NCBI GenBank assembly: GCA_964487115.1
Contig: CAZAPD010000090.1
Span: 7,994-71,993 of the forward strand
Length of the DNA: 64,000 bases
DNA from: an uncultured Thermococci archaeon
GTDB taxonomy: Archaea > Methanobacteriota_B > Thermococci > Thermococcales > Thermococcaceae
Reading direction: 5' to 3'
A program made the position numbers and the translations under genes. This document shows positions 9,401 to 27,904 of this stretch, piece after piece; position 1 is the stretch's first letter, and each line of letters starts with the position of its first letter. Under the pieces are notes generated by a model. That model searched no databases. It worked only from the letters and a program-made list of their open reading frames with translations, and was not told the DNA's origin.

Positions 9401-9633
9401 GATATATAAAACACAAAAGTAGGTTTAAAGTGTTTTTGCCCTCATGCTCCACCCGGGTTTGACAATTTCTTTCAAACTCACAACTTAAGTATCAGTATTA
9501 GGCTAATTATCCAATGGGGAGTTCAAATAATACTGCATTCAACTATTAGAGTTGTATACAATTTCGTATAAGCCATGTTAGAAATCAAAACTCAGTTCCT
9601 CCAATCAATTTTAAACCTTGAGGAGGGAGAAAA

Positions 9634-9804
9634 ATGATTTGGGAAGCAGAGCCTGATATTGTGGAGTATATCAATAAAAAAACAGGCATTAATATCGACA
9701 CCATTATTACCATCCTCAATGCAGAGGAAGCTTTTTTCATGATTCAAATTCAGAAAGCCTTGAAGACAAAGAAGAAAAGAGTTAAGGAGGAGTTGGTAAT
9801 ATGA
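9634..9804 (+). CDS. 56-aa hypothetical protein, translationally coupled to the giant ORF
   Basis: Below the ORF-track size cut-off. Sequence is MIWEAEPDIVEYINKKTGINIDTIITILNAEEAFFMIQIQKALKTKKKRVKEELVI. Strong SD GGAGGGAG (9622-9629) lies 4 nt upstream of the ATG. Its TGA (9802-9804) overlaps the ATG (9801-9803) of the giant ORF. Confidence 0.45.
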   Translation: MIWEAEPDIVEYINKKTGINIDTIITILNAEEAFFMIQIQKALKTKKKRVKEELVI

Positions 9805-9875
9805 AAAGAGCAACGACTGCTATGGTGATATTCTTAATACTCTTTTCACTGTTTTCATATCCTCTCCTCGCAGCC
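9801..9875 (+). other. Signal peptide of the giant protein
   Basis: MKRATTAMVIFLILFSLFSYPLLAA: basic n-region, hydrophobic core, A-x-A-like end. Confidence 0.7.
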
Positions 9876-12800
9876 AATATGACTAAAAGTCTCAATTCAA
9901 GCAAAAAGGAAGCCCCGACACTAAGATTAGATGAGGCTAATAATCCAGATGTAGCTGTAACATCGCTTTCATATTCCTATGTAAATGGTAGTCAGATGAT
10001 TGTCTCTGCAAGTGTTGTAAATTACGGAAACACGTCAGAGCCATTTAACACAACGTTTATTGCAATAGAGCCTCAAGAGTTACCTGAACCAAGTGAGGTA
10101 CCGTTTACCTGGATAGATATAAGCCAAATAGTCCAAAATGCCGTTCAGGTTTATAGTGGGGAGTATGTTTCAAACTGGAGTGCTGTACTACATGGGGATG
10201 ATAGTTATTTCATATACAAGCTACCATTTGTTCTCAATTACTTTGGAAGAAAAATAGTAAATATTTCAGTGAGCACAAATGGATATATCGAGCTTTTGGG
10301 CAAATGGGAACAACCAAGGTTCAGATCATCGATAGGTATCTATCCCGATTTAGAAGACTATCACGAAGATGTCATATTGGCGTTGGATGGAGATTTGGAA
10401 ACAGATGACGGCTATCTTGCAGTTGTGGGTTTTGCTGACAAAGTCGTCATAGAGTGGTTTGGTTCAACATTTCAGGATTATAATTCCGCTGATTATCCGA
10501 TAAATGTTCAGGTCATCATCTTCAGGAATGGTACAATTAGATGGAGCTACAAATTCCTTAGGTATTCAAGTGAAGAGTATAACATGTTTGCAGGATATTT
10601 CTCAAAAGTCTCTCTTGAGGATAGGGTAATATCCCAAGGAGAAAGAAAAAGCTTTGAGGTGCAACTTCCAGAGGTTACACCATTGACTATCAAATCCCAG
10701 ACTCCGGGGCTCTTAAATGAAGAGGAGACCACCACTACTATTATGCTTCCAATCAGGGATTTCTATGTGGAAGCTATTGCCGATAATGAAGAAGAGCTTA
10801 ATGATTACTACAGATTCAACAACATTGGAGAATTGTGGATATGGCCTGGCGACTACTGGATAGAGAATGCGACTATCGGAAATCTCACGGTGGGGGAATA
10901 TGTGGAGATTAATTTTACAGTAAAGAGCACATCACACCATCCAGAAACAACAATGATAAAGTTGTTGATGAACAATGAAAGCGTTAGAACTCTTTATGTA
11001 AATAGCTTAGATTTCATAAACGGAACAGCAAGAAAAAGCTTTTCTTGGAGAGTTCAAGGGGGAAAATACAGCCTGATGCTCGAACTTCAAAATCAGGGCG
11101 ATATTAACACAGAGAATAACTTGTTCTTATTAGGAAATTATTCTCTGCCCCAACCTAATTTTAAAGTCTTAAACTATTCAATTTCTATTCCAAACTGCGT
11201 TGGAGATTTAGCGGTTATAACGGCAAACGTGACAAATGATGGAGATGCCAACTGGAGTGATGTTGAAGTTAAATTTGTAGTTGGATACTCAAGTTCAGGG
11301 CAACTACCTATATCCAGAATTTCCTACATATCCCTGCCAGCAGGTGATACTAAGGAGGTATCAGCTTCGTTCTCTTTACAACCGGGTAATATAAGTTGGA
11401 TATACGTCCAAATAGATCCCTACGACAGAGTTATTGAGAGGAATGAAAATGACAACATTCTAAATGAAACATATATGGCAGAAATTTATTATCCAGACTT
11501 TACCGTTGAGTCAATATACACTCCCACAAAACCAAACACCGGAAACAGTTATACTATTAACATTACCATAGACAATCTGGGTCAGTGCTACAATGGAGGT
11601 ATTTATACATACCTCTATGAAAACGGTTCCCGTGTTGGATACAAATATGTTACAGGGATTCTTACCAATCCCAAAAATATTAGTATAGGCTGGACACCGA
11701 GAGAACCGGGTTTAAGGAATTTGACAGTTGTAATTGATCCATATAACTCAATTCCTGAAAAAAACGAAGCAAACAATGCCCTTTCAAAAATGGTATTTGT
11801 TGGAGGCCCAGATTTAATCATAACCAATGTAACCCTGCTCAGCTTTGATGGAATGGCAGGCAGTACAGCCACATTTAACGTTACCATAAAGAACACTGGA
11901 GAAGCCTTTACAGATCCATTCTATGTTGTAGCTAAGAGCTCTCTGGGCTCGGATTATGAATATATAAGAGGTATGAACAAGAATGAGGAGAAATGGATTA
12001 TTCTACAGCCCATTATTAACGGTGGTTCTTACAACCTGACGTTTATAGTAGATTACACGCATAATATTCCAGAGACCTATGAGAGCAATAACATGGCTTT
12101 GTATCCTATAAATGTCCCACGTCCGAATTTTATCATTGAAAGAGTGGAGATTCCTGATAACACTGTTGGAAACGTGCCAATCAACATTACAATCAAAAAC
12201 ATTGGTGCTCCTTATAATGCTACCAGAACTAACGTGATTGTGAAAATACAAGCTTCTGGTTACTCGAGCCTATACTTCGGAGGCATAATTGGGAGCAATG
12301 AAAGTGTCTGGAAAACAGGAGAGGTCGATATCAATCCTCCTGGTGGAACTATCAATGTTACAGTAAATCCATCCAAATTCATAAACGAGACTCACTTCTC
12401 AGACAATTCATATGTCTTGGATCATACAACAGGATACCCGGATTTGACTGTAAAAATCTCCGTTCCAAATGACGTGTCTGCAGGTGAAAGAATTCCAGTA
12501 AATGTAACTGTCAAAAATATCGGAAATGCAACACTAAGAATCTCCAAATATTCCTATTGGTATTATTATCTGCCATTATCGGTGAAGATAGTGTATGAGA
12601 ATGGTGAAACATACACCAGCAGATATGAATTAGCCCCGGCTACATTGGATCCAAATACAAGTATTATGCGCATATCATATTTCACCCTCAATGGCGGTCT
12701 TAACATCCTGAATGCTACTGTTGATGAGAATAATAGGTGGAAAGAATCCAATGAAAGCAATAATTATGCCACAGTTTCATTAAATGTCGCCATGCCAGAT

Positions 12801-15800
12801 TTTGTTGTCTCTAATTATTCTATCCAGGAGAGCCTGCTAAATGGTAGCGCCTATCTCTATAAGACTTATAGTTTGCCAGTTAATGTGACAAATAATGGGG
12901 CAAACTTTAGTTCTTACGTATATGTTCAGCTTTTAGATAACGGTAAATACTCTTCAAGCAGGAGTGTTGGACCGCTGAATCATGGAGAAACAAAAGAAGC
13001 GTTCCTATACTATATCCCTGCTCCCGGCCAGCATCTAATTACGCTCCTCGTAGACCCAGGCAACAACTGGATAGAATCCAACGAAACGAACAACAACAGA
13101 ATTGTAGCGAATTTATCGTTTGGATATCCAGAGTTAGTTCCTCTTGGAGTTACATGGACACCCTATAACTTTACATCCGGAGACAGTGTAACTTTTAAAA
13201 CATATATCAAAAACACCGGGCAAGCGTTCTATAGAAGCTTTTCAGTGCGCTTTGAGGTGTGGAATGAGACTTCAAGACTGACATATGGATATGGCACTCC
13301 TAATCCGTACAGTTGGTACTTCAAGGAAAATGAAACGAAAGAATTTGACTGGAGATGGTATAATGCAAAACCCGGCAATTTAACTCTTAAAATATTCGTG
13401 GATTACTATAATGCTATACCAGAATCGAATGAGAGCAACAACGAATATGAAGCTTATCTTGGGTCAATAGGAACCCCAGATTTTGAATTGAGCAATTTGA
13501 CTGTTGAAAATCTGGAGTATGGCAGGTATGCCAGAATAAATGTTAATCTAAGGAATCTTGGAGAGGCTATCTATAAAAACTTCCCAATAATGTTTAACAT
13601 AAGCAACACCATACGATATGTGTGGATTTATGGCATGAATTCCAATGAATCAAAACTAATAGGCACAAAATGGTATGTTGATAAAGTCGGCAACATTACT
13701 ATTCAAGTAAGAGCTGATCCAAATAACGCCATAATCGAATCTGATGAAGATAACAATGAAGTTTCAGGCAGTTATTATATTGAGGCACCAGATTTGGTCA
13801 TATCCTCCTACAAGTGGATTGAAGATGACCTGAGCAGAGGATATCTGACCTTCAATATTAATGTTACGAATAATGGAGGAAACTGTTACAGAGGATTCTA
13901 CGTTGGAATGTATATCGATGGTGAGCACAAAGCGGATGCATGGATACCCTCACTCATGAAAGGGGAAACCAAAGAAGTTACAGTAAAATGGCACTTTAAT
14001 GTAGGCGGCACTCACAATGTAACTCTAAGAGCGGATACATACGACACCATAGAAGAGAGCGATGAAAATAACAATGAAGTCAATACACAGGTTACAATTG
14101 CGCTCCCTGACCTCACAATTGAGAGCATAAGTCTGCCCGAAAATATGAATGCAAATGCATATTACCCAATTAACATCACGATTAGAAATGATGGGCTTAG
14201 GGATGTTGATGAATACTTTACTGTAGCGGTATTCGATGGGGATAGATTAATAGGAAGCAAAGGGTATAACACACTTAAAGCCGGCCAAAGCACAGCAATA
14301 CAACTTCAGATAAGACCGTATCCCGGAAACAGGACTATCAAAGCTATAGTTGATTATTACAACCACGTCTATGAAGTGAATGAGAGCAATAATGAAGCAG
14401 AGGCAAAAACCTACGTCAGTGCTCCAAATCTCAAAATTTTGTCTGTCTATGTCGGAAATTACACTTTTGCAGGCGATGAGGCAGTATTAACGGCGACCCT
14501 TGAAAACACGGGAGATGCAGAAGCAAAGAACTTCTACATTGGATTTAAGGCTGGGGATGTATATATAGGGGCTGCTCGTGTGGAAAGCTTAGCTCCAAAC
14601 AGCATCAAAAACGTTTCAATAACCTGGAAAATACAGGGGGGAGAGTATCCAATATACGCAATTGCAGACTATGGAAACTATCTGCGTGAATGGAATGAAA
14701 GTGACAACACAGCCAGCACTCCTGTTAAGGTTCCCACTCCAGATTTAACTGTAAGCAATTTAACATGGAGAGGGGAAAAACAGGTAGGGGCATTTATCAA
14801 CTTTTCGGCTGTAATTTCAAACATAGGAAACCCCACGAAGCAAGAATTCTATGTTTCACTGTATGTAGGAAACGAAGCTGTAGACCATGTGAAAGTCAAC
14901 GGACTTGAGGCTGGAGCAAGCATGGAGATAGATTTCCATCCATGGAAGGCAAAATATGGAAACCTAACAGTGGAAGTTAAAGTTGATACTTGGAACTTCG
15001 TTACAGAATCTAATGAGAACAACAATGTGGTTTTAAGCACCATAAACATTAAGGATATCTCAGCTCCTACAATAATGCAGATGTTTCCGGCAAATGGTAG
15101 TATAACGAACAGGAATATAACCGGAGTTTATCTTGTAGATGACGGAGCCGGAGTGGACTACTCTCTGAGCAAAATAGATATTATCAAAAATGGCACTCAA
15201 ATACCTGGGCATAGTGAATTTAGTGGAGGCTGGCTGGTCTTTATACCTGATTCGAAGCTTGGAGATGGTGAATATACAGTAAGAATAAAAGCAGTTGATA
15301 AAGCAGGCAATTCGGCAAACTATACTTACACATACACTCTTGACACAACACCACCAAGAATAAAAATCGAAGGAGTTTCAAATGGAGCAACATATAACTC
15401 CACCATATTCCCCCAAGTAACAGTGATGGACATCCATTTGAAAGAGTATAGCACACTCCTTAATGGGAAACCCTATAACGGTGAGCCTATAAAATTCGAT
15501 GGAAGCTACGTCCTCGAAGTTACCGCCTCTGACGAAGCTGGAAACAGTGCTCATGAAAAGATAACGTTTACCCTCAATGGGATACCTCTACCACCCTCAT
15601 CCCTCACTGTCAAATCTGAAGAAGGCTATGCTATCTTAACATGGAAACCAAGCCCAAGTAAAGATGTTTTGGGGTATTTTGTATATGTTAACGGAGTTAA
15701 GGTAACCCCTGAACCAATAGAAAGGTTAAACTTTACCCTTCCATATCAGGAGGCTGTTTATGAAGTCTCAGCAGTTGATTTTGCAGGACATGAGAGTGAG

Positions 15801-18800: not shown

Positions 18801-21800
18801 GTTGGAGGCATTGGCGGAGGAGGCGGAGATGGTATCAGTTATGAAGTCCAAGAATGTGAAAAAACAGAGGGTATAGCTCCAACACCCCAGAGTTCATCCA
18901 CCCGTATCAGTAAAGGAAGTATCCCAGATGTTAATGGAAAGAGCTGTGCATTTTTAAGAAATGTACCCGGAGAAGAGATATTACCAGCACAAACTGTTAA
19001 TCCCAATGAAGATCATAAAAACATGGTCTGCACTCGGATAAAACTTGAAATAAGACAGAGATTGACAATGGAGAGACAGGGTTTCAGAGCAGATTTGAAA
19101 TTCACCAACCTAGCAGGATACACAATAAGAAATCTAACGGTATACATTAAGTTCTTCGACGAAAACGGCACAGTTGCAGATGATAAATTCTTTGTCAGAG
19201 TGCTAACATTAGAGGGAATAAATTCCTTAAATGGTTCGTCTTTAGTTCCCAATGGAACAGGAATAGTCAATTGGCTGATAATACCAAAACCAGGAGCAGC
19301 TGGAGCATTGAGCACGCACTACACAGTCAAAGCATACATATTTGGAAAAGTCGGTAACACCACCTTGGAATACGAGAGCTGGCCTGAAGAGATAACTGTT
19401 GAACCTATGCCTATCCTACAGTTGGATTACATGCTCCCGAGATACGTGTATGGTGACAATCCAAAAACGCCAGAGGTAGAACCCCCAATACCCTTTGTCT
19501 TTGGAGTCAGAGTGAAGAACATAGGATACGGAGATGCCAAAAATCTGAGAATAGAGTCTGCTCAACCAAAGATAATAAGCAGTAACGTCCCAGCATATAT
19601 ATCATTCCGCATAATTGGAACATATATTAACGGAATTAAAGCGGCCAACAGTCTAACAGTTGACTTTGGAGATATACCTGCAGGGGAGAGCGCAACCGCA
19701 GCATGGATAATGACCGCTCAAGTAAGTGGGGAATTCGTGAGCTACAACGCTACATTTATCCATGAGGACCTATTGGGTGGAAACGAAACATCTCTAATAA
19801 GAACCCTAAGAACTCACACCCTATTCAAAGCTTTCAATGACACCATAAGAAATGATGGGATGATGGACTTTTTGGTTGATGATAATAGAGATCTGATTCC
19901 CGAGAGGATAATAGACTCCACTGGAGCAGATTTCGAGGTACTCCATGTAAATGCCACGATGAGAACAGAGTCAGACATGAAGATAATCGTACCAACAGCC
20001 ATATTTATAGACAAATGGACATACATAGGACTCAAATTCAATCCCGGGACTACGTTCAGGATTGTGCGCTCAGATGGCAGTATGCCCGTTTCATACTGGT
20101 ATGATGGTAAAACACTCCATATTTTAGATTATGGGACTCCAGAATTTTACTATATTAAGAGCAATAGAAAACCAGTGGCTCAAGCGACAATAACCTCACC
20201 GACAATTGCCAATAGGAGCGTAACTTTCGACGCTTCCTTAAGTTATGATCCGGATGGAAAAATAACGGATTATGCATGGAAAATAGGTAATCTAACCTTC
20301 CATCGGAAAGTATTGAACTACACCTTCACCAAACCGGGAATTTATAATGTCACACTTACCGTTAGAGATGATGGTGGTCTCTCAGCAACTAAATCCTTTA
20401 TTGTTACAGTTTATCTCGGGCCAAGATTTACTGAGAACTTCAGTGTGTCACCAAAATTGGGAGTTGTACCATTCAACATAACCGCAGTGTTAAATGTAAC
20501 AAATAGTGGGGATGCTGAAGGCATATACTCAGCAGCATTTTCAGTTGATGGAAAGCTCTTAAACATTTCCCAGGTAAGCATACAGCCAGATACAACGTAT
20601 TCCTTCGAATTCCGTGCGAAAATTTCAGAAATCGGTTATCACAATGTGACCATTAATAACTTCACTCAAGTCGTGGAAGCATACAAGAACGTTAGTATAT
20701 CTCAAATTAACAGGCAGAATTATTCAAAATACTTTGGATATTACAATTCGCTTCAATGGGATGAATTTAAGAAAGATTTTGAAAACTGGAGTGCCAACAT
20801 TCTTTCAAATATCACACTGCCTGTGGAGGAATTTGACAGGGTCATCTACATGAAAACAGGAAACTGGAGTATTGCAGAATATATTGAGAATCTTAACAAG
20901 ACTGAAGAGTCAGGATGGATTAAAGCTGTTTATACAAGAAATGTTACTTTAATTGGAATTACCAAGTGGAATTATACAGAGCTCCACCTAACACAAGTTG
21001 CAGAACTCTATGGAAACGCCACACACAAACTTGATGTAACAGCTCCTTCACTAACGGTGAGTCCAAGTAGCGGAATCTATCAATATATCCCAGAATTCAA
21101 TGTCACAGTCTGCGATGAAAGTAATGTCACCGTATGGGGCATTAGTATTACCAAAGGGACAAAAACGGCATTCACTTTGATTTCCATCAACAACACATGT
21201 TCCCTATGGAGAGGAATCTTACCACTGGATATTGCCAATAATACGGTAACAATAATAGCCGAAGACGAATTTGGAAACAGGGCTAATGAGACCCTGTGGA
21301 TATACATTAATCCAACAACACCAATAATCTACATTGAAAGTCCCAAATCCACAGTTTACAACAAAAAAACGCTTTGGTTCAATTATACAGTTATAGATAC
21401 CGATTTAATTGGTGTGAGAGCCTATTTAGATGGAACTCTAACAAGTACCTCAGTCAATGTCTCCAAACAACTAACAATGGACTACGGATACCATAACTTT
21501 ACAGTTACTGCATGGGATGTCTCATATAATGTTAGTAGAACCGTAATCTTCAGGATAAACAAACCCCCTATAGCCAACTTCACATGGACAGCAAACCATC
21601 TGAGGGTTAATTTCACGAGCACAAGTACAGATGAAGACGGCATAATACGTTATCTATGGGATTTCGGTGATGGTTCAAGTTCAAATGAAACAAACCCAAC
21701 CCATGTATATCCAAGGGGCGGCAGGTATAATGTAACACTAACAGTATGGGATGCCTACAGTGCCACTTCCACGATAACCAGAGCTATCCAAGTATTTGCA

Positions 21801-23198
21801 AATGTTAGCGAGAACAAAGAAGAAAAACACTTATTCACAAAATACTTTGGATTTTACAACACATCTTCATGGGAACCATTTAGAGAAGATTTTGGGCAGT
21901 GGAGCAGCGATATACTTAAAAACATGACTATACCAGAAGAGGAGCTCGATAGTATTTACTCCACAATTATTTCAAATTGGAGTCTCACATCCTACAGGGA
22001 AAACCTGATTATAGGAGCTTCTACAGGCTGGATAAACGCTACTTACAGAAGAGAGGTAATCATTAAAGGCTTCAGGGGATATGAAAATATTACACTGTCA
22101 ATAATTCAAACAGTTCATCTGTTCGGCAACGCAACACATGTTCCCGATACAGAGCCTCCCGAGATATCCATAACCTATCCAGAAAATAAGACTTACGACC
22201 ACAATATCACGTTAATTAAAGTTCAGGTCTATGATGTTTCTCCAGTTAAATGGGTCAGAGCGGAGCTGGATGGGAGAATATACCCAATGAATCACGTAAA
22301 TGATTCATGGTTGGCAACCGTTAATATCGGAGATGGAAAACACCTTCTCACAGTGTATGCCTCGGATGTATACGGGAATACTGGATATACCAACATTACA
22401 TTCACAGTCAATACCAGCATCAGAATAGTGGAAAGCAACAATACTACAGTTCAAGTGATTCCCGGTGAAGCTGAGAGTCAAATCCAAATCGGTGGCAGCT
22501 CAGTGACTATTAATATTAGCATTCAAGGTGTTGAATATTCATTTATATTCCATGCCCAGCCCTTGATTACAGTAGATGAGAGGATTAACAGCAAACCATG
22601 GATGATGATTTACAGTAACGCACAAATGGGAGAAACAGAAGAAAAAACTGAGGAGATCACCCAAGGAGGGACGGTTTATAGAGTGAGAAGAATTACAATT
22701 GAACTTCAAGTGGCGGAAGATGGATACGCTGTTTTAGTAGTACCGCTCCATCAGATGAAGCCAACGGAGATTAAGATAGATAAGGATGGCGTCGAGTACA
22801 AATTAACAAGAGAAAAGAGGGAATATGGTTACTTTGGAGTATTTGGGGACTATTTATACATAGTGGTTTTTGATGATCCAGTTATTAAAATAACAATGGA
22901 AGAGATAGACAGAACACGCACAATAGAATTACATAAAAGAATATGGACCAATCTCGGCATCATATGGGAAGCATATTATCTCAGAATGAATGAAAGATTC
23001 AACGAACTGGAAGCCAACATAACAAATATAAGCAGAATCCAGAAAGCTTTGAGCCTCCATAAGAAAGCACAAAGCTACTTTGATAAAGCAAATACCTACG
23101 ATCCAAGGATTAATCCAGCGATGTATGCAATATACATGAGAAAAGCATATATCACAGAAAAAAGGGCCCTGAAGCTACTTATTGAAAATCTCCATTAA
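9801..23198 (+). CDS. Giant secreted multi-domain surface protein (4465 aa): CARDB-like x13, Ig/FN3-like, CarboxypepD_reg-like, Cys-rich module, PKD x2
   Basis: Uninterrupted 13,398-nt ORF. AAGGAGG lies 10 nt upstream of the ATG. N-terminal signal peptide, domain motifs as listed in the sub-features, and very frequent N-x-S/T sequons. T6 terminator-like run just downstream. Confidence 0.9.
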   Translation: MKRATTAMVIFLILFSLFSYPLLAANMTKSLNSSKKEAPTLRLDEANNPDVAVTSLSYSYVNGSQMIVSASVVNYGNTSEPFNTTFIAIEPQELPEPSEVPFTWIDISQIVQNAVQVYSGEYVSNWSAVLHGDDSYFIYKLPFVLNYFGRKIVNISVSTNGYIELLGKWEQPRFRSSIGIYPDLEDYHEDVILALDGDLETDDGYLAVVGFADKVVIEWFGSTFQDYNSADYPINVQVIIFRNGTIRWSYKFLRYSSEEYNMFAGYFSKVSLEDRVISQGERKSFEVQLPEVTPLTIKSQTPGLLNEEETTTTIMLPIRDFYVEAIADNEEELNDYYRFNNIGELWIWPGDYWIENATIGNLTVGEYVEINFTVKSTSHHPETTMIKLLMNNESVRTLYVNSLDFINGTARKSFSWRVQGGKYSLMLELQNQGDINTENNLFLLGNYSLPQPNFKVLNYSISIPNCVGDLAVITANVTNDGDANWSDVEVKFVVGYSSSGQLPISRISYISLPAGDTKEVSASFSLQPGNISWIYVQIDPYDRVIERNENDNILNETYMAEIYYPDFTVESIYTPTKPNTGNSYTINITIDNLGQCYNGGIYTYLYENGSRVGYKYVTGILTNPKNISIGWTPREPGLRNLTVVIDPYNSIPEKNEANNALSKMVFVGGPDLIITNVTLLSFDGMAGSTATFNVTIKNTGEAFTDPFYVVAKSSLGSDYEYIRGMNKNEEKWIILQPIINGGSYNLTFIVDYTHNIPETYESNNMALYPINVPRPNFIIERVEIPDNTVGNVPINITIKNIGAPYNATRTNVIVKIQASGYSSLYFGGIIGSNESVWKTGEVDINPPGGTINVTVNPSKFINETHFSDNSYVLDHTTGYPDLTVKISVPNDVSAGERIPVNVTVKNIGNATLRISKYSYWYYYLPLSVKIVYENGETYTSRYELAPATLDPNTSIMRISYFTLNGGLNILNATVDENNRWKESNESNNYATVSLNVAMPDFVVSNYSIQESLLNGSAYLYKTYSLPVNVTNNGANFSSYVYVQLLDNGKYSSSRSVGPLNHGETKEAFLYYIPAPGQHLITLLVDPGNNWIESNETNNNRIVANLSFGYPELVPLGVTWTPYNFTSGDSVTFKTYIKNTGQAFYRSFSVRFEVWNETSRLTYGYGTPNPYSWYFKENETKEFDWRWYNAKPGNLTLKIFVDYYNAIPESNESNNEYEAYLGSIGTPDFELSNLTVENLEYGRYARINVNLRNLGEAIYKNFPIMFNISNTIRYVWIYGMNSNESKLIGTKWYVDKVGNITIQVRADPNNAIIESDEDNNEVSGSYYIEAPDLVISSYKWIEDDLSRGYLTFNINVTNNGGNCYRGFYVGMYIDGEHKADAWIPSLMKGETKEVTVKWHFNVGGTHNVTLRADTYDTIEESDENNNEVNTQVTIALPDLTIESISLPENMNANAYYPINITIRNDGLRDVDEYFTVAVFDGDRLIGSKGYNTLKAGQSTAIQLQIRPYPGNRTIKAIVDYYNHVYEVNESNNEAEAKTYVSAPNLKILSVYVGNYTFAGDEAVLTATLENTGDAEAKNFYIGFKAGDVYIGAARVESLAPNSIKNVSITWKIQGGEYPIYAIADYGNYLREWNESDNTASTPVKVPTPDLTVSNLTWRGEKQVGAFINFSAVISNIGNPTKQEFYVSLYVGNEAVDHVKVNGLEAGASMEIDFHPWKAKYGNLTVEVKVDTWNFVTESNENNNVVLSTINIKDISAPTIMQMFPANGSITNRNITGVYLVDDGAGVDYSLSKIDIIKNGTQIPGHSEFSGGWLVFIPDSKLGDGEYTVRIKAVDKAGNSANYTYTYTLDTTPPRIKIEGVSNGATYNSTIFPQVTVMDIHLKEYSTLLNGKPYNGEPIKFDGSYVLEVTASDEAGNSAHEKITFTLNGIPLPPSSLTVKSEEGYAILTWKPSPSKDVLGYFVYVNGVKVTPEPIERLNFTLPYQEAVYEVSAVDFAGHESEKVLAEPIIVSLVSPQNPLLAENYPANLTFHLKNMNGAINVSVDIQLIDSLGNVIKDIDYGRLQFAPNETKQLVLTFITPEDLRAVQVIVSNGGKSYTTFPVKTYRTSLPNITISSILSNFPEVIPVNITNFGSAELTVSGSASLGRITGETNYIRLKPGENGTLYIYLTPKDIGEEILTLNLTYRTFGDAKTFKITKTINVTSPILNPITLSHEQIVKGKIATVFAIFKNLGSAPLTVNKAIIRLVDGNSTIVEKTVYKTARLYSEGTISFYTTFVVPANAPDYATLEVTVYGMDGYKLNYSKREEVQLLKPPYNANVTIGKEIYSPGETIHVTGYAFNESGFLPNVTVKLSFARDDFVRTFLVKTDSYGRFTFNFTPYATEGGTFVISATHPKVISLEHDAQFKVLGIVPLVRHYTLQVPIKFRYKLQIPLRNVGDEPLNITVTSNSSIFHVDILKNITLMPGEIKRISVVISSNQSKNETFSLTFRSRYNNESVQINIITLPEKPILRASPKVIDVGVKPGEVLTKSVEVENLGFAPAGNVTIILPNWSFVTLASNFTTIEAGEKEAFTIFIAPTENNTGKFTGYVKLSAKDAEVKIPIRVIVTPNQTGNVRFILVDPEGNPIPNGKITISNEYYTETKVADKNGTVLFSNVPVGLYKYYAFGEEIVPKDGNIIIDAGIEKNVTVILLKSPLKVEFEVYPVTVDDVYTIVHEIEYETYLTIPYLKVDYGQGYIIVNSSYLKEHGVVEFRGYVTIQNTNPYLSVVNVTFRPIIVDHYTEIVFAVDRIDEIKPGENVTVPYVIRVYQHRSPDIDPCKPQRIVISLPSLAYCEDGKWHVPPADEISFTIKLACVDCFWSITAVIKDVAVALSGPLGDVIQGGVKIGKAGIMIVRTSKVVGDVADKILNIQGQIDFGAKCYAAATSGCQEDASSCIQKVVDTIIGFIPVVNDIWGIYNDIKGAIENCGNCLFKDSCVKKCTPIQVPPINSIPIYIGISGGGDVGGIGGGGGDGISYEVQECEKTEGIAPTPQSSSTRISKGSIPDVNGKSCAFLRNVPGEEILPAQTVNPNEDHKNMVCTRIKLEIRQRLTMERQGFRADLKFTNLAGYTIRNLTVYIKFFDENGTVADDKFFVRVLTLEGINSLNGSSLVPNGTGIVNWLIIPKPGAAGALSTHYTVKAYIFGKVGNTTLEYESWPEEITVEPMPILQLDYMLPRYVYGDNPKTPEVEPPIPFVFGVRVKNIGYGDAKNLRIESAQPKIISSNVPAYISFRIIGTYINGIKAANSLTVDFGDIPAGESATAAWIMTAQVSGEFVSYNATFIHEDLLGGNETSLIRTLRTHTLFKAFNDTIRNDGMMDFLVDDNRDLIPERIIDSTGADFEVLHVNATMRTESDMKIIVPTAIFIDKWTYIGLKFNPGTTFRIVRSDGSMPVSYWYDGKTLHILDYGTPEFYYIKSNRKPVAQATITSPTIANRSVTFDASLSYDPDGKITDYAWKIGNLTFHRKVLNYTFTKPGIYNVTLTVRDDGGLSATKSFIVTVYLGPRFTENFSVSPKLGVVPFNITAVLNVTNSGDAEGIYSAAFSVDGKLLNISQVSIQPDTTYSFEFRAKISEIGYHNVTINNFTQVVEAYKNVSISQINRQNYSKYFGYYNSLQWDEFKKDFENWSANILSNITLPVEEFDRVIYMKTGNWSIAEYIENLNKTEESGWIKAVYTRNVTLIGITKWNYTELHLTQVAELYGNATHKLDVTAPSLTVSPSSGIYQYIPEFNVTVCDESNVTVWGISITKGTKTAFTLISINNTCSLWRGILPLDIANNTVTIIAEDEFGNRANETLWIYINPTTPIIYIESPKSTVYNKKTLWFNYTVIDTDLIGVRAYLDGTLTSTSVNVSKQLTMDYGYHNFTVTAWDVSYNVSRTVIFRINKPPIANFTWTANHLRVNFTSTSTDEDGIIRYLWDFGDGSSSNETNPTHVYPRGGRYNVTLTVWDAYSATSTITRAIQVFANVSENKEEKHLFTKYFGFYNTSSWEPFREDFGQWSSDILKNMTIPEEELDSIYSTIISNWSLTSYRENLIIGASTGWINATYRREVIIKGFRGYENITLSIIQTVHLFGNATHVPDTEPPEISITYPENKTYDHNITLIKVQVYDVSPVKWVRAELDGRIYPMNHVNDSWLATVNIGDGKHLLTVYASDVYGNTGYTNITFTVNTSIRIVESNNTTVQVIPGEAESQIQIGGSSVTINISIQGVEYSFIFHAQPLITVDERINSKPWMMIYSNAQMGETEEKTEEITQGGTVYRVRRITIELQVAEDGYAVLVVPLHQMKPTEIKIDKDGVEYKLTREKREYGYFGVFGDYLYIVVFDDPVIKITMEEIDRTRTIELHKRIWTNLGIIWEAYYLRMNERFNELEANITNISRIQKALSLHKKAQSYFDKANTYDPRINPAMYAIYMRKAYITEKRALKLLIENLH
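10848..15056 (+). repeat. Array of 13 tandem, diverged CARDB-like domain units (period about 312-357 nt)
   Basis: Each unit opens with P[DN][FL]xhxxh (PDFTVESIY, PDLIITNVT, PDLTVKISV...). Each contains N.G (NDGDA, NTGEA, NIGNA...) and ends in an acidic/Asn cap. The caps are NTENN (about 11110), ERNENDN (11447), EKNEANN (11770), TYESNN (12082), ETHFSDNS (12395), ESNESNN (12752), ESNETNN (13082), ESNESNN (13433), ESDEDNN (13746), ESDENNN (14063), VNESNN (14382), WNESDN (14700) and ESNENNN (15015). Confidence 0.8.
15057..15830 (+). other. Ig-like domains followed by an FN3-like domain
   Basis: DISAPTI...YTVRIKAVDKAGNS...DTTPPRIKIEGV...LEVTASDEAGNS, then PPSSLTVKSEEGYAILTWKPSPSKDVLGYFVYVNG (FN3-like). 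Confidence 0.5.
17631..17872 (+). other. Carboxypeptidase-regulatory-like (CarboxypepD_reg) beta-sandwich domain
   Basis: GNVRFILVDPEGNPIPNGKITISNEYYTETKVADKNGTVLFSNVPVGLYKYYAF. Confidence 0.6.
18240..19030 (+). other. Cys-rich module with embedded Gly-rich linker (18784-18840)
   Basis: 14 Cys within about 265 aa (CKPQ, AYCED, ACVDC, AKCY, SGCQ, SSCI, ENCGNC, DSCVKKC, QECE, KSCA, VCTR) in a protein otherwise almost Cys-free. Includes GISGGGDVGGIGGGGGDGIS. Confidence 0.7.
20170..20415 (+). other. PKD domain 1
   Basis: VTFDASLSYDPDGKITDYAWKIGN...YNVTLTVRDDGGLSAT. Confidence 0.8.
21558..21797 (+). other. PKD domain 2
   Basis: VNFTSTSTDEDGIIRYLWDFGDGSSSNETNPTHVYPRGGRYNVTLTVWDAYSAT. Confidence 0.85.
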
Positions 23199-23206
23199 CT
23201 TTTAAA

Positions 23207-23212
23207 TTTTTT
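23207..23212 (+). terminator. Oligo-T (T6) archaeal-type terminator candidate after the giant ORF
   Basis: TTTAAATTTTTTAC lies 9 nt after the stop codon. Confidence 0.4.
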
Positions 23213-23310
23213 ACAGATTTTAATTTATGTTATGTTGCATCCTATCCTCCATGATTTCTGCACCATCATATCTTGGGATGTTCTAAATTCGCTAAATATA
23301 ATACGATGGA

Positions 23311-23324
23311 TATAAAAATATAAA
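23311..23324 (+). promoter_or_regulatory. TATA-box candidate for the STAND gene pair
   Basis: TATAAAAATATAAA lies 28-41 nt upstream of the preferred ATG at 23352, with an AGAGGG SD in between. Confidence 0.35.
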
Positions 23325-23351
23325 GTGCATAATTACATAGAGGGTTCATGT

Positions 23352-25613
23352 ATGAGTATGAAAGCCTCATTATTAATGAGATCATTATCCAACGAAACTA
23401 ATCTGCATATACTCTCCATACTTAAATCCGGCGCGTTTAATCCCAGAGAACTTGCCCGCATTCTGCAAAAAGATGAAACGGATATTTCAAGAAGACTAAG
23501 ACTGCTGGAAAAGGCAGGATTAGTGAAAGGTCAGTGGATGCGAATAGGAAAAAAGAATGTAAAAGTGTATTCGCTGAAGGTAGATGAAGTCAAAATAAGC
23601 TTCAAGCCAACAGAAGTGATAATAAGAACGACTACAAATGAAAACTACCAGATACCTATATTTGACAGGAAAGTTCCTGAGGTTAATATGTTCTTTGGAC
23701 GGCAAGCTGAAATAGAAAAAATAACATCAACTCCAGCTCGTGTCATACTCATCTATGGAATAGCAGGTATTGGAAAGACAACTCTAATAGCAAAAATATT
23801 CAATAATGCTTTTTGGTACCAGATAAATGAGCTCGATAGCTTTGACTATATCATATGGCAGTTTGGTTTATACCTCAACACCCTCGGATATTCTCTACTC
23901 CTTGATTATCTACGCAGCGGAGGGAAAAATGAGAGGGATATATTCGAACTCATACTCGATGGAATGGAAACAACGGGAGCTCAGGTAGTTATTGATGATG
24001 CCCATAAATGCTCTGACGATAAGATAATACAGCTCTTTACGTATCTGACACCAAGGCTTCAAAAAGCAAAGCTTGTAATAATATCAAGGGAAAGGATAAA
24101 TTTAGGTTTGAAAAATGTGATGTATTTACATCTCAAAGGTTTAAGTGCAGAGGATGCCTATCAGCTTTTGATATCCAAAGGAGCAAGAATAGAACCGGAA
24201 AAATTTGCAGAGATCTACCACATAAGTTATGGACACCCTCTAATATTGCTCCTATTTGCTGAAACATATCCTGATGAAGAGGTCAAGATGCACAACTTCC
24301 TTGATTTCTTGTTTACTGAAATCTACCAAAAGCTGAAAGAGGATGAAAAGTTAATGATTCAAATACTCTCTCTTTTTGATGAACCTTTAGAATACGAGGA
24401 GATAAGGGCCTTATATCAAAAAAAGAATGTTTTTACAGTTCTATACTCCCTTACAAACAAGGGAATAGTGGAAAAAAGGGGAGAGGCTTATGCGCTCCAT
24501 GATCTACTGAGAGGACTTGCAAAAGAACTTACAGACATCGATGAGCGAGAATACTACTTAAAATACATTAATCATCTGCTGACAAAGAAAACAGCCAAAG
24601 CTTTTATGAAAGCTCTCCAGTATGCCGTCAAACTTGGGGACGAGGAGAAGATTAGGGAACTAATCGAAATCAGGCTAAGAAGATTCAAACGGATAATTCA
24701 AGATTTTCCAGATTCGTATATGCGAATTTTAATTCAAATCAAGGATAATCCTTATGCCAAAGAGGAGCTCGGTAATATATACTTCCAGAAAGGTCTATTC
24801 AATAAAGCCCTTACTCTCTGGCTTGAAATTAAGGACAAAGTCGAAGGTATTCACAAAGGCGATGTTCTAAGCTCTTTGGTTGATATATACATAGAATTAA
24901 ACGAATTTGAAAAAGCTGAGGAATATCTCAGGGAACTGGAAAAACTTTTAGCCAAAACGCCAGATTTAAAAATTCAACTTTGGTATTATATCCAACTTAC
25001 AAAATTTGAATATTACAAAAATAACCATGAAAATGCTCTCAAAAGCGCATTTAAAGAGCTTGAAATAGTAAGGAAAATGAGCCCATATCCAGAGCTTGAA
25101 AGTCTCGTATTACTTCACATCGGGGATATATATACAGGCATGGAAAAGGTTAAAGATGGAATCAAATATTACATCCAATCCCTCAAACTGGCTAAGGCAT
25201 ATAATCTGGCATTCTTAGAGCATGTCTCATATATGGAGCTAACAAAAGCATATTTCATCCTTAAAGATTATAGAAGAGCTATAGAATATGGAACAAAAGC
25301 AGTTCAATACTTCATCAGGGTCAGAAACTATCGTAGGGCTATCGACGCATTGGCATATAGATGCCTCTCATACGCTGGATTACTAAAGCTCAAAGAAGCC
25401 GAAAAGGATGCCGAAGAAATGATAAAGATAGCCCAAACAACAAACTATCCATTAGCATGGGCAGGATACATATTCTTAGGAGTAATTAAAGAGTTAAGGG
25501 GAGAGAATGGGCAGGAATATTTCAAACTGGGTGAAGAGAGACTGAAAGAATATCCTTGGTTGTATGAGTCAGTTATGGAAGAGGTTAACAGGGTGGAATT
25601 AAAGGAGGAGTAG
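23352..25613 (+). CDS. Winged-HTH + STAND (NB-ARC/archaeal-ATPase-like) P-loop NTPase + TPR-repeat protein, paralog 1
   Basis: ORF track 23325-25613. The ATG at 23352 is preferred because it gives the same 13-aa lead before NETNL as paralog 2. ArsR-like wHTH (NLHILSILKSGAFNPRELARILQKDETDISRRLRLLEKAGLV). FFGRQAEIEKI then Walker A GIAGIGKTT. Walker B VVIDDAH. NB-ARC-type GxP motif YGHPLILLL. C-terminal about 300 aa are TPR-like helical repeats. Confidence 0.8.
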   Translation: MSMKASLLMRSLSNETNLHILSILKSGAFNPRELARILQKDETDISRRLRLLEKAGLVKGQWMRIGKKNVKVYSLKVDEVKISFKPTEVIIRTTTNENYQIPIFDRKVPEVNMFFGRQAEIEKITSTPARVILIYGIAGIGKTTLIAKIFNNAFWYQINELDSFDYIIWQFGLYLNTLGYSLLLDYLRSGGKNERDIFELILDGMETTGAQVVIDDAHKCSDDKIIQLFTYLTPRLQKAKLVIISRERINLGLKNVMYLHLKGLSAEDAYQLLISKGARIEPEKFAEIYHISYGHPLILLLFAETYPDEEVKMHNFLDFLFTEIYQKLKEDEKLMIQILSLFDEPLEYEEIRALYQKKNVFTVLYSLTNKGIVEKRGEAYALHDLLRGLAKELTDIDEREYYLKYINHLLTKKTAKAFMKALQYAVKLGDEEKIRELIEIRLRRFKRIIQDFPDSYMRILIQIKDNPYAKEELGNIYFQKGLFNKALTLWLEIKDKVEGIHKGDVLSSLVDIYIELNEFEKAEEYLRELEKLLAKTPDLKIQLWYYIQLTKFEYYKNNHENALKSAFKELEIVRKMSPYPELESLVLLHIGDIYTGMEKVKDGIKYYIQSLKLAKAYNLAFLEHVSYMELTKAYFILKDYRRAIEYGTKAVQYFIRVRNYRRAIDALAYRCLSYAGLLKLKEAEKDAEEMIKIAQTTNYPLAWAGYIFLGVIKELRGENGQEYFKLGEERLKEYPWLYESVMEEVNRVELKEE

Positions 25614-27904
25614 TGGTGACGCAGGACATTTCATTTTTAAGGAGCATTCTCAATGAGACTAATCTTCAGATACTAACCCTTCTGAGAACCACCTCTCTTA
25701 ACACAAGAGAAATAGCACGACTTCTCCAGAAGGATGAAACTTATATCTCAAGATGCTTAAGGACACTTGAAAGGCTTGGGATTGTCGAAGGCGAATGGAT
25801 GCGAGTTAGAGGAAAAAATGTGAGGATATATTCTTTAAAACTTGAAGAACTCAAAATAAGCTTTGGTTTGGAGGGTTTAAAAGTTATTATCGGAAAGAGA
25901 CACCTACAATACTCCCCTCCCCTCTTCTCGAACAGAGCTCCAGAGGTCAAAGTTTTTGTTGGACGGAAAAAAGAACTGGAATTCCTATCCAGCAGTTATC
26001 CCGTGGTTATTGTATATGGGATGGCGGGTATTGGCAAATCCACATTAGTTGCCAAGGCATATAGAGATGCATTTTGGTATCGAATAAATGGAGATGAGAG
26101 CATTGAATATGTAATCTGGCAGTTGGCTCTATATCTAAACCTCCTTGGATATTCTGATGTTATCGAATATCTCAGAGGGGGTGGGAAGGAATTAGCTGTT
26201 ATAAAGGAGCTAACCGCAGAAGGTATCAACAGAACGAAAGGTATTATAGTTTTTGATGACCTTCATAGATGTGATGATGAGGATATCATGTCATTCATAA
26301 GATTTTTAGCCTCAAATATTGAAAATGGAAAATTAATCCTTATCTCACGAGAAAAACCTCAGATAGGATACAACGAAAAGATGCTGGTAATACATCTAAA
26401 GGGATTAGAGAGTAGAGATGCCTATGAACTTTTGAAACTCAAACTGCCAAATCTCACACTTGATGAATTCACGAAAATTTATCATGCCACTTTCGGCCAC
26501 CCTCTGGCACTTTTGTTGGCATCAGAAATGCCCGATTTTCACGGAGGGAACTTTTTTGAATATCTCTTTAGAGAGGTTTATGAAACACTAAAAGAAGATG
26601 AGAAATTAATGCTACAGATACTTTCTCTCTTTGATGAACCTGTTGAATATGAAATCTTAAAAAAACTCTCTGGTCATAATACGTTTTTGACCCTTTACTC
26701 TCTTCTGAATAAAGGACTTGTTGAAAGAGTGGGAGATAGTTATCATGTCCATGACCTCCTTAGAGCCCTCCTCAATGAGGTAAGAGACATCGAAGAAAAA
26801 AAGTATTATAGCAAATATATCTCGTATCTGCTCAAAAAGAACAACGCCAAAGATTTTCTAACGGCATTTAAATATGCAATACGCCTTGAAGATGAGGAAC
26901 TTATTAAGAAGTTAACTGAGGTGAGAATCCGGGAATATTGGAGGATTGCCCTCGATTTTCCCACCGCATATTTAAAGCTTCTCGATAGAATCAAACATAT
27001 TCCTTATGCCAAAAAAGAAATCGCAAGGATATACTTTAACAAAGGATTCTTTGAAAAAGCCCTACAGCTGTGGCTTGAAGCCAGTGATAAGGTTGAAGAG
27101 GATTTTCATAAATTTGATGTTATTATGATGCTTATAGATGTCTTCTGTGAGCTTGGTAAAATTGACGAGGCTGAGAAATATATGACAGAGCTTGAGGAAA
27201 TATACTTAAGAAATGCAGAAGACCCCTATATCAGATTGGGCTATTATATTGAGCTAACAAAAATAGCCACATTTAAAAGAGAACGCGAGAGAGCCTTGGA
27301 AAACGCATTTAAAGAGCTTGAGGCAGTTCGAAATTACCCAAAGGTGTATCCTGAGCTGGAGGCACTTGTACTTTATCACATTGGATATCTCTATGTTGAA
27401 CTCGGTGAATTAGAAAAAGCTTCAAAATATTACGGGGAGGGTTTAAAGGTTTCTAAGGCATATTCCCTGCCTTTTATGGAAAATCTTGGATACATCCAGC
27501 TCGGAATAATTAACTACACACTGGGAGATTACGAAACCGCAGTCTTCCATTCAGAAAAAGCTGCAAAATACTTTTTACATACTAAGAACTACAGGCGAGC
27601 AATCGATGCACTTTTTAGAATAACACTTTCGCTTATGGGTTTAAAACAGTTTAAAGAAGCTGAAGAGAAGGCAAAGGAAATTTTGGAGCTTGCTCAAACA
27701 ACTAATTATCCCCTCGGATGGTGCGCTTATGTGCTTTTGGGCATTGCAAAGGAACTGCAGGGAAAAGAGGGAAAAACAGAGATAGAACAGGGATTAGAAA
27801 AAATTAAAGACAACACGTATCTGCATAAGGGGCTCTTTGAAGAGCTTTCTTTAGTTCTTGATGAAAACAGCCTTAAGAGATTGTTCTCTACTGCCAGATT
27901 CTGA
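25613..27904 (+). CDS. Winged-HTH + STAND P-loop NTPase + TPR-repeat protein, paralog 2
   Basis: 763 aa, collinear with paralog 1; roughly half the residues are identical by eye over the N-terminal 300 aa. Walker A GMAGIGKST, Walker B IIVFDDLH, FGHPLALLL. GTG start overlaps the TAG of paralog 1 by 1 nt. The 3' end overlaps the convergent fumarase alpha gene by 17 nt. Confidence 0.8.
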   Translation: MVTQDISFLRSILNETNLQILTLLRTTSLNTREIARLLQKDETYISRCLRTLERLGIVEGEWMRVRGKNVRIYSLKLEELKISFGLEGLKVIIGKRHLQYSPPLFSNRAPEVKVFVGRKKELEFLSSSYPVVIVYGMAGIGKSTLVAKAYRDAFWYRINGDESIEYVIWQLALYLNLLGYSDVIEYLRGGGKELAVIKELTAEGINRTKGIIVFDDLHRCDDEDIMSFIRFLASNIENGKLILISREKPQIGYNEKMLVIHLKGLESRDAYELLKLKLPNLTLDEFTKIYHATFGHPLALLLASEMPDFHGGNFFEYLFREVYETLKEDEKLMLQILSLFDEPVEYEILKKLSGHNTFLTLYSLLNKGLVERVGDSYHVHDLLRALLNEVRDIEEKKYYSKYISYLLKKNNAKDFLTAFKYAIRLEDEELIKKLTEVRIREYWRIALDFPTAYLKLLDRIKHIPYAKKEIARIYFNKGFFEKALQLWLEASDKVEEDFHKFDVIMMLIDVFCELGKIDEAEKYMTELEEIYLRNAEDPYIRLGYYIELTKIATFKRERERALENAFKELEAVRNYPKVYPELEALVLYHIGYLYVELGELEKASKYYGEGLKVSKAYSLPFMENLGYIQLGIINYTLGDYETAVFHSEKAAKYFLHTKNYRRAIDALFRITLSLMGLKQFKEAEEKAKEILELAQTTNYPLGWCAYVLLGIAKELQGKEGKTEIEQGLEKIKDNTYLHKGLFEELSLVLDENSLKRLFSTARF

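Follow-up and report, generated by a model that had tools for sequence, protein, structure and literature searches.

A PH0952-type STAND gene, a palindromic operator and a micro-protein gene accompany interchangeable surface-protein genes in Thermococcales

This analysis concerns four co-directional genes on the plus strand (positions 9634-27904) in 64,000 nucleotides (nt) of an uncultured Thermococci archaeon (contig CAZAPD010000090.1), a stretch referred to below as the window. They encode a micro-protein of 56 amino acids (aa), a giant secreted protein of 4465 aa, and two STAND proteins (STAND1 and STAND2) in which a winged helix-turn-helix (wHTH) domain is joined to a nucleotide-binding oligomerization domain (NOD) and a tetratricopeptide repeat (TPR) sensor. 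The anatomy of this module, the family to which it belongs, the association of its genes, and a palindromic operator set in a fixed promoter geometry are established here. The explanation that is favored on balance is that a STAND switch of the PH0952 type, together with the operator and the micro-protein, gates interchangeable cassettes of surface-protein genes in a manner resembling MalT and AfsR. Under this explanation, the STAND wHTH would bind the candidate operator, the effect would be activation, and the cargo would function in adhesion or in a matrix. All four open reading frames (ORFs) were found at the positions given by an earlier sequence-only reading, and the block and its control elements are laid out as follows.

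9455-9479, palindromic, no strand assigned: operator GGGTTTGAcaatttcttTCAAACtC (8-N9-8), predicted to be bound by the STAND wHTH, with one mismatch to the consensus
9485-9491, plus strand: weak TATA-like element, TTAAGTA here and GTAAGTA in most loci, beginning 5 nt past the operator
9634-9804, plus strand: micro-protein gene, 56 aa, an ORF with an upstream GGAGG ribosome-binding site
9801-23198, plus strand: giant secreted cargo gene, 4465 aa, recognized by its ORF, Pfam domains and collinear homologs
23207-23212, plus strand: T6 run just past the stop codon of the giant gene, a plausible archaeal oligo-T terminator
23300-23335, plus strand: STAND promoter region, with a strong TATA ATATAAAAA at 23310-23318 followed by ...GTGCATAATTA
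23352-25613, plus strand: STAND1 gene (alternative GTG start at 23325), recognized by its match to PDB 6MFV, Pfam domains and motifs
25616-27904, plus strand: STAND2 gene (GTG start at 25613 or 25616), recognized by Pfam domains and motifs

The association of these genes was examined in 22 Thermococcales loci carrying a PH0952-type gene (the window, L002-L013, L039-L043 and L049-L052), the complete genomes (CP006965, CP002372, CP006670, CP014862, CP002952, LR881183 and CP040846) being seen as excerpts of about 20 kb around the loci. The co-occurrence of giant homologs, wHTH-STAND-TPR genes and the micro-ORF, which the sequence-only reading had proposed as a check, is borne out across the order. 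A secreted cargo gene adjoins the STAND gene in 21 of the 22 loci, in two orientations (co-directional or divergent) and at several chromosomal sites. Ten loci have a homolog of the giant beside the STAND gene, collinear and 37-80% identical, which is co-directional with the STAND gene in eight (the window, L002-L006, L011 and Pyrococcus sp. ST04) and divergent in two (L010 and L013). Another ten carry an alternative cassette, in which the micro-ORF is joined by genes for a secreted product of about 540 aa and for a 205-aa product (approximate length) that has a signal peptide and, at its C-terminus, a transmembrane (TM) anchor; the remaining cargo is a beta-helix protein on a cut contig (L009). 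In T. barophilus, the 540/205-aa cassette is followed by a NosD/beta-helix protein of 1727 aa. On these comparisons at least four types of cargo are interchangeable, the giant being one of them. The micro-ORF was found in all 13 STAND loci whose fetched sequence covers its expected position, and it stands last in the 540/205-aa cassette and first ahead of the large proteins. The earlier description of a self-contained four-gene module is thus upheld as to a real and conserved module, but the conserved core consists of STAND, micro-protein and operator, and the giant is one cargo of this core.

The operator has the consensus GGGTTTGA-N9-TCAAACC(C). One copy lies upstream of every cargo operon whose start is within the fetched sequence, and the copy in the window is the only match with at most three mismatches in 64 kb. 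In 436 kb of Thermococcales loci, ten sites with at most one mismatch were found against 0.005 expected, and all of them are at cargo promoters. The reverse test gave the same picture, as an exact metagenome search with the palindrome, N5 and GTAAGTA returned five loci, each with the match directly upstream of cargo (three with the micro-ORF and then a giant, two with a 540-aa gene). An alignment of 16 cargo promoters displays a fixed geometry in which the palindrome is followed by 5 nt and then by (G/T/A)TAAGTA; about 30 nt separate the TATA-like box from the ATG, and the called start codon lies 42-45 nt past the palindrome in 11 of the 16. The corresponding distance from palindrome to start in the window is 154 nt. 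The operator abuts the position of the B recognition element (BRE) of the weak TATA-like box, and known archaeal activators bind directly upstream of BRE/TATA. Since a conserved palindromic operator adjoins a weak TATA-like box ahead of the cargo operon, transcriptional control of the cargo by the adjacent wHTH protein would be the most economical reading.

The correspondence between the wHTH and the operator may extend to their variation. The recognition helix of the STAND proteins (DETD[IV]SRRL) is near-invariant, and so is the operator half-site. STAND2 has the recognition helix DETYISRCL as compared with DETDISRRL of the STAND1 type. The genomes with STAND2 alone, T. camini and T. indicus, show a variant first half-site, GGGTTTGG, and the one helix read from them, that of T. 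camini, is DETQISRGL; this hints at co-variation of helix and half-site, which may reflect a single evolutionary event. T. zilligii, where the micro-ORF is decayed and the adjacent cargo is lost, is without the operator. The strongest evidence for the link between wHTH and operator comes from L053, a contig of 59% GC to which a distant micro-like protein was the only lead (profile E = 9e-8). This contig encodes a divergent wHTH-STAND protein, 39-43% identical, with the helix DETDVSRRL, and carries the operator core GGTTTGA-N9-TCAAACC followed by AATAAAT. A micro-like ORF of 65 aa overlaps by 8 nt the gene of a 1620-aa protein with a signal peptide, a DUF7619 domain, a Thr-rich linker and a C-terminal TM anchor, which has no detectable similarity to the giant. 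Because of L053, the combination of a regulator with an operator, a micro-protein and a large surface protein can be said to outlive homology of the cargo.

The wHTH-STAND-TPR architecture that had been read in both paralogs is confirmed by Pfam domains and by intact switch motifs. The ArsR-type wHTH (HTH_5) scores 23.9 and 27.3 bits in the two proteins (Pfam cut-off 22), NB-ARC, of the NB-ARC/NACHT P-loop module, scores 27.4 and 28.8 bits (cut-off 23.5), and TPR is matched in both; the NCBIfam HTH_metalloreg matches to the wHTH fall below cut-off. The motifs are GIAGIGKT (Walker A), VVIDD (Walker B), GHPL and LHD in STAND1, and GMAGIGKS (Walker A), IIVFDD (Walker B), GHPL and VHD in STAND2. 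STAND1 is laid out as an ArsR-type wHTH, a NOD composed of nucleotide-binding, helical and winged-helix domains (NBD-HD-WHD), an arm, and a sensor of six TPRs. Its residues 102-748 align with residues 3-646 of the PDB 6MFV chain (E = 8.3e-202), from the NBD to the TPR cap. By these matches both STAND proteins are close homologs of PH0952, and STAND1 falls in the PH0952 ortholog group. The two proteins, each of about 755 aa, are 47-48% identical. STAND1 has 61-64% identity with the one STAND present in each of L005-L008 and L039, while STAND2 represents a second subtype, with 58-59% identity to the sole STAND of T. camini and of T. indicus. The dedicated pair of sensors proposed earlier is present in the window, but such a pair is lineage-specific (the window and the three closest loci), and most genomes have one STAND, of either subtype. 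The wHTH is the most conserved domain of these proteins; the TPR sensor is about as conserved as the NOD and has many invariant aromatic and charged residues. A surface with NYRRA and TNYPLxWAGY is likewise conserved. The PH0952-type family forms about 40 clusters at 90% identity, and all clusters with a named source are from Thermococcus or Pyrococcus.

The T6 run and the TATA-like ATATAAAAA noted earlier between the giant gene and STAND1 are both present, and since oligo-T runs terminate archaeal transcription, the T6 run would be a terminator. A conserved promoter with a strong TATA, separate from that of the cargo, serves the STAND genes. A block GCGATGRATATAAAAAYAT...ATGCATAATTA is conserved upstream of the STAND genes of L002, L004, L005, L006, L008, L039 and L043, and from its position the start of STAND1 is taken as the ATG at 23352 rather than the GTG at 23325; gene callers also chose the 753-aa product. 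STAND2 is probably co-transcribed with STAND1, and its ribosome-binding site, AGGAGGAG, sits within the 3' end of STAND1.

Relatives of the STAND proteins at about 25% identity occur in Thermoplasmatota and Heimdallarchaeia. In a handful of loci, these distant genes adjoin genes for PKD, cadherin-like, Ig-like or P-domain proteins, three of which have signal-like N-termini. Beside one Heimdallarchaeal relative lie three large unannotated ORFs (L023:1854-6194), which by position only are possibly CRISPR type III-like.

The micro-ORF is a genuine gene, as argued by its clusters, its conserved residues, its ribosome-binding sites and the conserved ATGA overlap. The micro-protein forms 23 clusters at 90% identity, every source-named cluster being from Thermococcus, with the consensus MIREIKxELVEYIxRxTGIDRxTVVxVLRAEEAFF. 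Good ribosome-binding sites precede the micro-ORFs. The overlap between its stop and the start of the giant gene, which had been claimed for the window, is verified as ATGA (AATATGAAA at 9798-9806) and is kept in L010 and L013. The idea of a micro-ORF coupled to the giant gene therefore stands as regards this overlap, but the micro-ORF is not a leader specific to the giant, being found with both cargo types and in a wider family. An exhaustive HMMER search recovered 66 representatives of this family at E<=1e-3. In the wider family (P0084-P0134), which is uncurated, the unit stands alone in proteins of 42-65 aa, is duplicated in tandem in others of about 100 aa, or forms part of larger proteins, with fusions to SWIM/DUF4116 or zinc-ribbon domains; it follows the pattern L-x-x-Y-I-x-x-x-T-G-I-D-x-E-T-V-x-x-V-L-x-A-E.

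AlphaFold2 with the family alignment modeled the micro-protein at a pLDDT of 88.8, with one helix at residues 7-17, a turn, and a second helix at 21-54. It is hence predicted to be a cytoplasmic two-helix protein; its N-terminus is not hydrophobic and has no signal peptide. The most conserved motif is acidic (A-E-E), and the basic tail is not conserved. Searches of the micro-protein against Pfam, PHROGs (also with its distant relatives) and PDB sequence profiles, and of its model with Foldseek, gave no significant match. Homology of the N-terminus to HU is unsupported, as the best similarities, to IHF/HU N-termini and to the winged-helix-like part of ESCRT-III, are weak (E>0.1).

Taken together, a working order of events may be proposed for the favored explanation. 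One or two PH0952-type STANDs would be transcribed from their own strong promoter and would rest in an ADP-bound, monomeric and autoinhibited state, as in the crystal structure of PH0952. Recognition of a ligand by the conserved TPR sensor would open the NOD, and ATP-dependent oligomerization would then set the wHTH domains on the two half-sites of the operator. The STAND bound there would recruit TBP/TFB to the weak cargo promoter, so that a costly surface protein is made only on signal. The micro-protein gene is always within the cargo operon, often overlapping the start of the large gene, and its product would be made in step with the cargo; it probably feeds back on the STAND, either as an anti-activator, like MalY, MalK and Aes for MalT, or as a co-ligand.

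Several observations weigh against this explanation. The cargo TATA of L010 and L013 is strong (TTATATAAAA), and therefore repression would fit as well as activation. The centers of the operator half-sites are 17 bp apart, a spacing that is unusual for a simple wHTH dimer and for which a particular oligomer geometry would be needed. No second operator for STAND2 was found in the window at up to three mismatches, and the recognition helix of STAND2 differs from that of STAND1. One secretome study of T. barophilus lists no protein with a mass near that of the 539-aa or the 1727-aa cargo, its locus tags being unmapped to the locus. In every locus with both positions fetched, operator and micro-protein occur together, an association as strict as that with the STAND. 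Lastly, the 22 loci are phylogenetically related, so that 21 of 22 does not amount to 21 independent events; the four cargo types, two orientations and several sites nevertheless argue against simple synteny.

This strict association of operator and micro-protein is what would be expected if the micro-protein, rather than the STAND, bound the palindrome as a small dimer, with the STAND sequestering the micro-protein or acting elsewhere. Such an arrangement is improbable. There are sub-significant likenesses to the N-terminal helices of HU/IHF and to HTH motifs (Foldseek E>5; Pfam TrmB, HTH_7 and Bac_DNA_binding at E 0.005-0.2 on relatives), but the model has two helices and no complete HTH, the acidic motif and the variable basic tail do not favor DNA binding, and no structural or sequence match is significant. 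The STAND, on the other hand, has a bona fide and highly conserved ArsR-type wHTH whose recognition helix tracks the operator. It is also very improbable that the genes merely share a conserved neighborhood without a dedicated regulatory link, with the targets of the STAND elsewhere (e.g. in fumarate/malate metabolism) and the palindrome serving another factor. In 11 loci the module does lie between the genes of the fumarate hydratase subunits, beside a malic enzyme gene, and the operator in the window is within about 55 nt of the divergent fumB start. However, the loci away from the fum genes (AM4, T. litoralis, T. profundus, Pyrococcus sp. ST04, L007, L010-L013 and L053) keep cargo, micro-ORF and operator beside the STAND, and the operator geometry is fixed to the cargo promoter and not to fumB.

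The kind of signal, and its purpose, may be conceived differently. In an NLR-like surveillance or conflict system, the TPR sensor would detect a viral or competitor protein as Avs proteins do, and the output would be transcription of surface-remodelling or antagonistic cargo in place of a nuclease; this departs from the favored explanation only in the kind of signal and in purpose, and it is judged quite unlikely. The cargo is variable and swappable, as in conflict systems, and the module genes diverge faster than their flanks (in L003, 43% identity for the giant and 59% for STAND1, as compared with 74% for fumA and 90% for a 2-hydroxyacid dehydrogenase). Moreover, VARTIG, another variable Ig-protein module of Thermococcales, has proposed roles in conflicts (PMC8416519). 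Nonetheless, a PADLOC scan found no Avs, no other STAND defence and no defence-system match, only wHTH (Csa3/CasR wHTH) and generic TPR models; a scan of viral contigs with the STAND profile gave P-loop-level matches and no relatives; no toxin, nuclease or immunity-like gene was seen; the giant homologs are collinear and not recombining at the C-terminus; and a TPR sensor about as conserved as the NOD suggests one conserved ligand. An unlikely variant is an NLR-like circuit with transcriptional output, in which the TPR sensor would monitor either a foreign protein or the micro-protein, the latter reporting on translation or export of the cargo and being released or consumed as the giant is made, and would switch on interchangeable extracellular 'effector' cassettes. 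If this were true, the micro-protein would exemplify a STAND ligand or anti-activator of a new class, and the circuit would be a prokaryotic precedent for a switch related to APAF1 and NLRs that controls cell-surface architecture.

PH0952 of P. horikoshii (PDB 6MFV) has been described as a predicted transcription factor with an ArsR-like N-terminal DNA-binding effector domain, in a clade placed between APAF1 and MalT (PMC6468293, Lisa et al. 2019). It was used there only as a structural model for MalT autoinhibition, and no target gene, operator, inducer or partner of PH0952 was reported (PMC6468293). The titles and abstracts of other papers mentioning PH0952 contain nothing on its biology. 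It shares with the window STANDs the family, collinearity over the full length from NBD to TPR cap, and the archaeal order, whereas the window has two STAND subtypes in tandem. To our knowledge, PH0952 is the only STAND with a TPR sensor for which there is a full structure of NOD, arm and sensor, and it is the template for MalT. The earlier remark that no described system of this composition is known in Thermococcales is accordingly inexact for the regulator, which belongs to a known structural family, but it holds for the biological context, as the operator, the micro-protein partner and the swappable surface cargo appear to be undescribed in the literature searchable here. The PH0952 family gains its first predicted targets, large surface proteins that form a candidate local regulon, together with a candidate operator and a micro-protein as conserved partner. 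If the favored explanation is right, it would give the first worked example of an archaeal STAND-type transcription factor and would explain how hyperthermophiles might gate the synthesis of 13-kb surface-protein genes. It would also add an example of a giant gene whose start is overlapped by the gene of a functional micro-protein, and a swappable cargo on a fixed chassis of regulator and operator is of interest for the surface diversity of vent archaea.

Likeness to other known systems is partial. MalT of E. coli and the large ATP-binding LuxR-type (LAL) regulators share with the STANDs the NOD, the arm and a TPR-type sensor. MalT is a ligand-gated, oligomerizing activator, and its control by small or inhibitory proteins (MalK, MalY, Aes) offers a possible analogy for the micro-protein. 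However, the DNA-binding domain of MalT is a C-terminal LuxR-type HTH and that of the present proteins an N-terminal ArsR-type wHTH, the regulon of MalT concerns sugars and the cargo here surface proteins, and the transcription machinery here is archaeal. Membership of MalT/LAL is rejected, with no LuxR/GerE match and 24-29 bits to the NCBIfam MalT equivalog NF003420 (cut-off 537). AfsR and the large SARP regulators of Streptomyces have the same order of N-terminal winged helix, NB-ARC and TPR; AfsR binds direct repeats, in contrast to the inverted repeat described here. Neither Trans_reg_C (OmpR-type wHTH) nor BTAD is matched, and the AfsR model reaches 16 bits (cut-off 1430), and hence membership of AfsR/SARP is rejected as well. 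Similarly, the proteins are not Avs or antiviral STANDs, as they have no Avs match in PADLOC and their effector is a DNA-binding domain and not an enzymatic or membrane domain.

VARTIG resembles the module in being specific to Thermococcales and in having variable loci around a large secreted protein with Ig/CARDB domains, which heads the operon (Makarova et al. 2021, PMC8416519). Most VARTIG proteins (arCOG07710) exceed 500 aa (about 950 residues in the mapped representative); they end in D[ND]NxxxG[GD], with small TM proteins encoded after them, and the main text of that paper mentions no STAND or TPR gene (PMC8416519). The motif D[ND]NxxxG[GD] is absent anywhere in the 4465-aa giant, which is preceded by the micro-ORF and followed by the T-run and STAND genes instead of variable genes for small TM proteins, and whose homologs are collinear; on these features, membership of VARTIG is rejected. 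The RNPP pairs (PlcR-PapR, NprR-NprX and Rap-Phr) likewise place a TPR-sensor regulator beside a small ORF for a possible ligand. RNPP regulators are without an NTPase and their peptides are exported and processed, whereas the STANDs have a NOD ATPase and the micro-protein, for which a folded helical hairpin is predicted, is without a signal peptide; this excludes the module from this class.

The giant itself has a signal-like hydrophobic segment at its N-terminus, where strongly hydrophobic 19-aa windows begin only at residues 4-9, and hydrophobicity over all 4465 aa revealed no further TM-like segment. Pfam matches CARDB in 11 stretches (E = 1.7e-154), together with two PKD domains (PKD_4, E = 4e-30), Big_13 and other Ig-like domains. 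With its signal peptide, its tandem CARDB/PKD/Ig-like domains and dense sequons for N-glycosylation (156), the protein conforms to the CARDB/PKD surface proteins of archaea. A PDB sequence search with the whole giant gave matches at the level of PKD/CARDB domains only, and a homolog search with its central region (aa 2741-3420) gave at least three matches. Collinear homologs, 37-80% identical, are present in L002-L006, L010, L011, L013, L040, L051 and L046-48. The C-terminal Ig-like domain and helical tail are common to the 1727-aa beta-helix cargo of T. barophilus, and the C-terminus reads ...KLLIENLH. A Cys-rich segment may be singled out.

18246-19031, plus strand: Cys-rich segment of the giant (aa 2816-3077), with 16 of the 19 Cys of the protein, conserved flanks and a variable middle

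The middle of this segment has a hydrophobic helical stretch and a Gly-rich stretch (GGGDVGGIGGGGGDG), and the segment (aa 2816-3077) has no family or structure match. Past the first CARDB-like unit, the region of aa ~100-290 (window 10100-10670), which has no Pfam match, contains the motif PFVLNYFGRKIVNISVSTNGYIELLG, reminiscent of NIDO-like domains.

As to the other cargo, the protein of about 540 aa is possibly transglutaminase-like, with a sub-threshold match to Transglut_core2 (E = 0.0027, 17.6 bits, cut-off 23.5) and the motif SGTC...PGHAFP recognized by eye. Between micro-ORF and STAND gene lies a slot that is subject to turnover, as seen in L008, L009 and T. indicus. L008:9142-9997 is a truncated, C-terminal remnant of a beta-helix protein, L009:1-552 is the C-terminal end of a beta-helix protein cut by the contig, and in T. 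indicus an IS605-family TnpB gene (L052:8600-9910) lies in the slot. In the long leader of the window (9480-9633), the 5' end aligns with the type-B promoter (that of the 540/205-aa cassette) and the 3' end with the last codons of the 205-aa gene. These short alignments weakly suggest that a deletion of the 540/205-aa genes gave rise to the giant-only form found here. Beside the STAND of T. zilligii only a decayed remnant of the micro-ORF is left, and a true giant homolog is found 6 kb away. Both T. profundus (L041:1-3697) and T. zilligii (L051:18540-22271) have a >4000-aa Ig-like protein about 6 kb from the STAND, in a syntenic block with DUF3216, TatD, rubrerythrin, MJ1316 and metallo-beta-lactamase; that of T. 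zilligii is 47% identical to the window giant, and the visible part of the T. profundus protein gave no match.

The block had further been described as compositionally distinct and free of mobility genes. No mobility gene was seen among its genes, and a search for att-like direct repeats at its borders found none, and hence a recent site-specific insertion is unsupported. The GC content is 0.36-0.42 in the block against 0.43-0.49 in the flanks, and at third codon positions (GC3) the giant gene and the two STAND genes have about 0.36, compared with 0.42-0.51 for flanking genes. The distinctness is thus seen in the giant and STAND genes but not in the micro-ORF (GC3 = 0.46, not lower than the flanks), and the stretch at 45-48 kb of the window, with TFE-alpha, DUF2110 and other housekeeping genes, is equally GC-poor. 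Low GC alone is for this reason weak evidence for foreign origin, and the equation of distinct composition with foreign DNA is weakened. In this GC-poor stretch, beside the DUF2110 and TFE-alpha genes, there is also an ORF of 456 aa (44671-46041) without a Pfam match.

The 18.5-kb module splits the genes for the beta and alpha subunits of class I fumarate hydratase, which form its borders.

8897-9400, minus strand: fumarate hydratase beta subunit gene (fumB), left border, Pfam Fumerase_C, E = 4e-41
27888-28751, minus strand: fumarate hydratase alpha subunit gene (fumA), right border, Pfam Fumerase, E = 4e-97

The same gene arrangement is found on an independent ENA metagenome contig of 77.6 kb. 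The 3' ends of STAND2 and fumA overlap convergently by 17 nt in the window, and the position between fumB and fumA, with a convergent STAND/fumA overlap of 11-17 nt, is also occupied in T. paralvinellae, T. barophilus (strain MP, CP002372), T. camini, T. indicus and several metagenome-assembled genomes. The left fumB border recurs in L008, L039, L043, L044, L049 and L052, and the STAND/fumA junction in L002, L003, L005, L006, L008, L039, L043, L049 and L052. Because the same borders and overlap recur across species, the block occupies an old common position, and its reading as a recent island is ruled out. In Thermococcales without the module, fumA and fumB are presumably adjacent. With fumB split from fumA, it would need a promoter of its own in 9401-9454, beside the operator.

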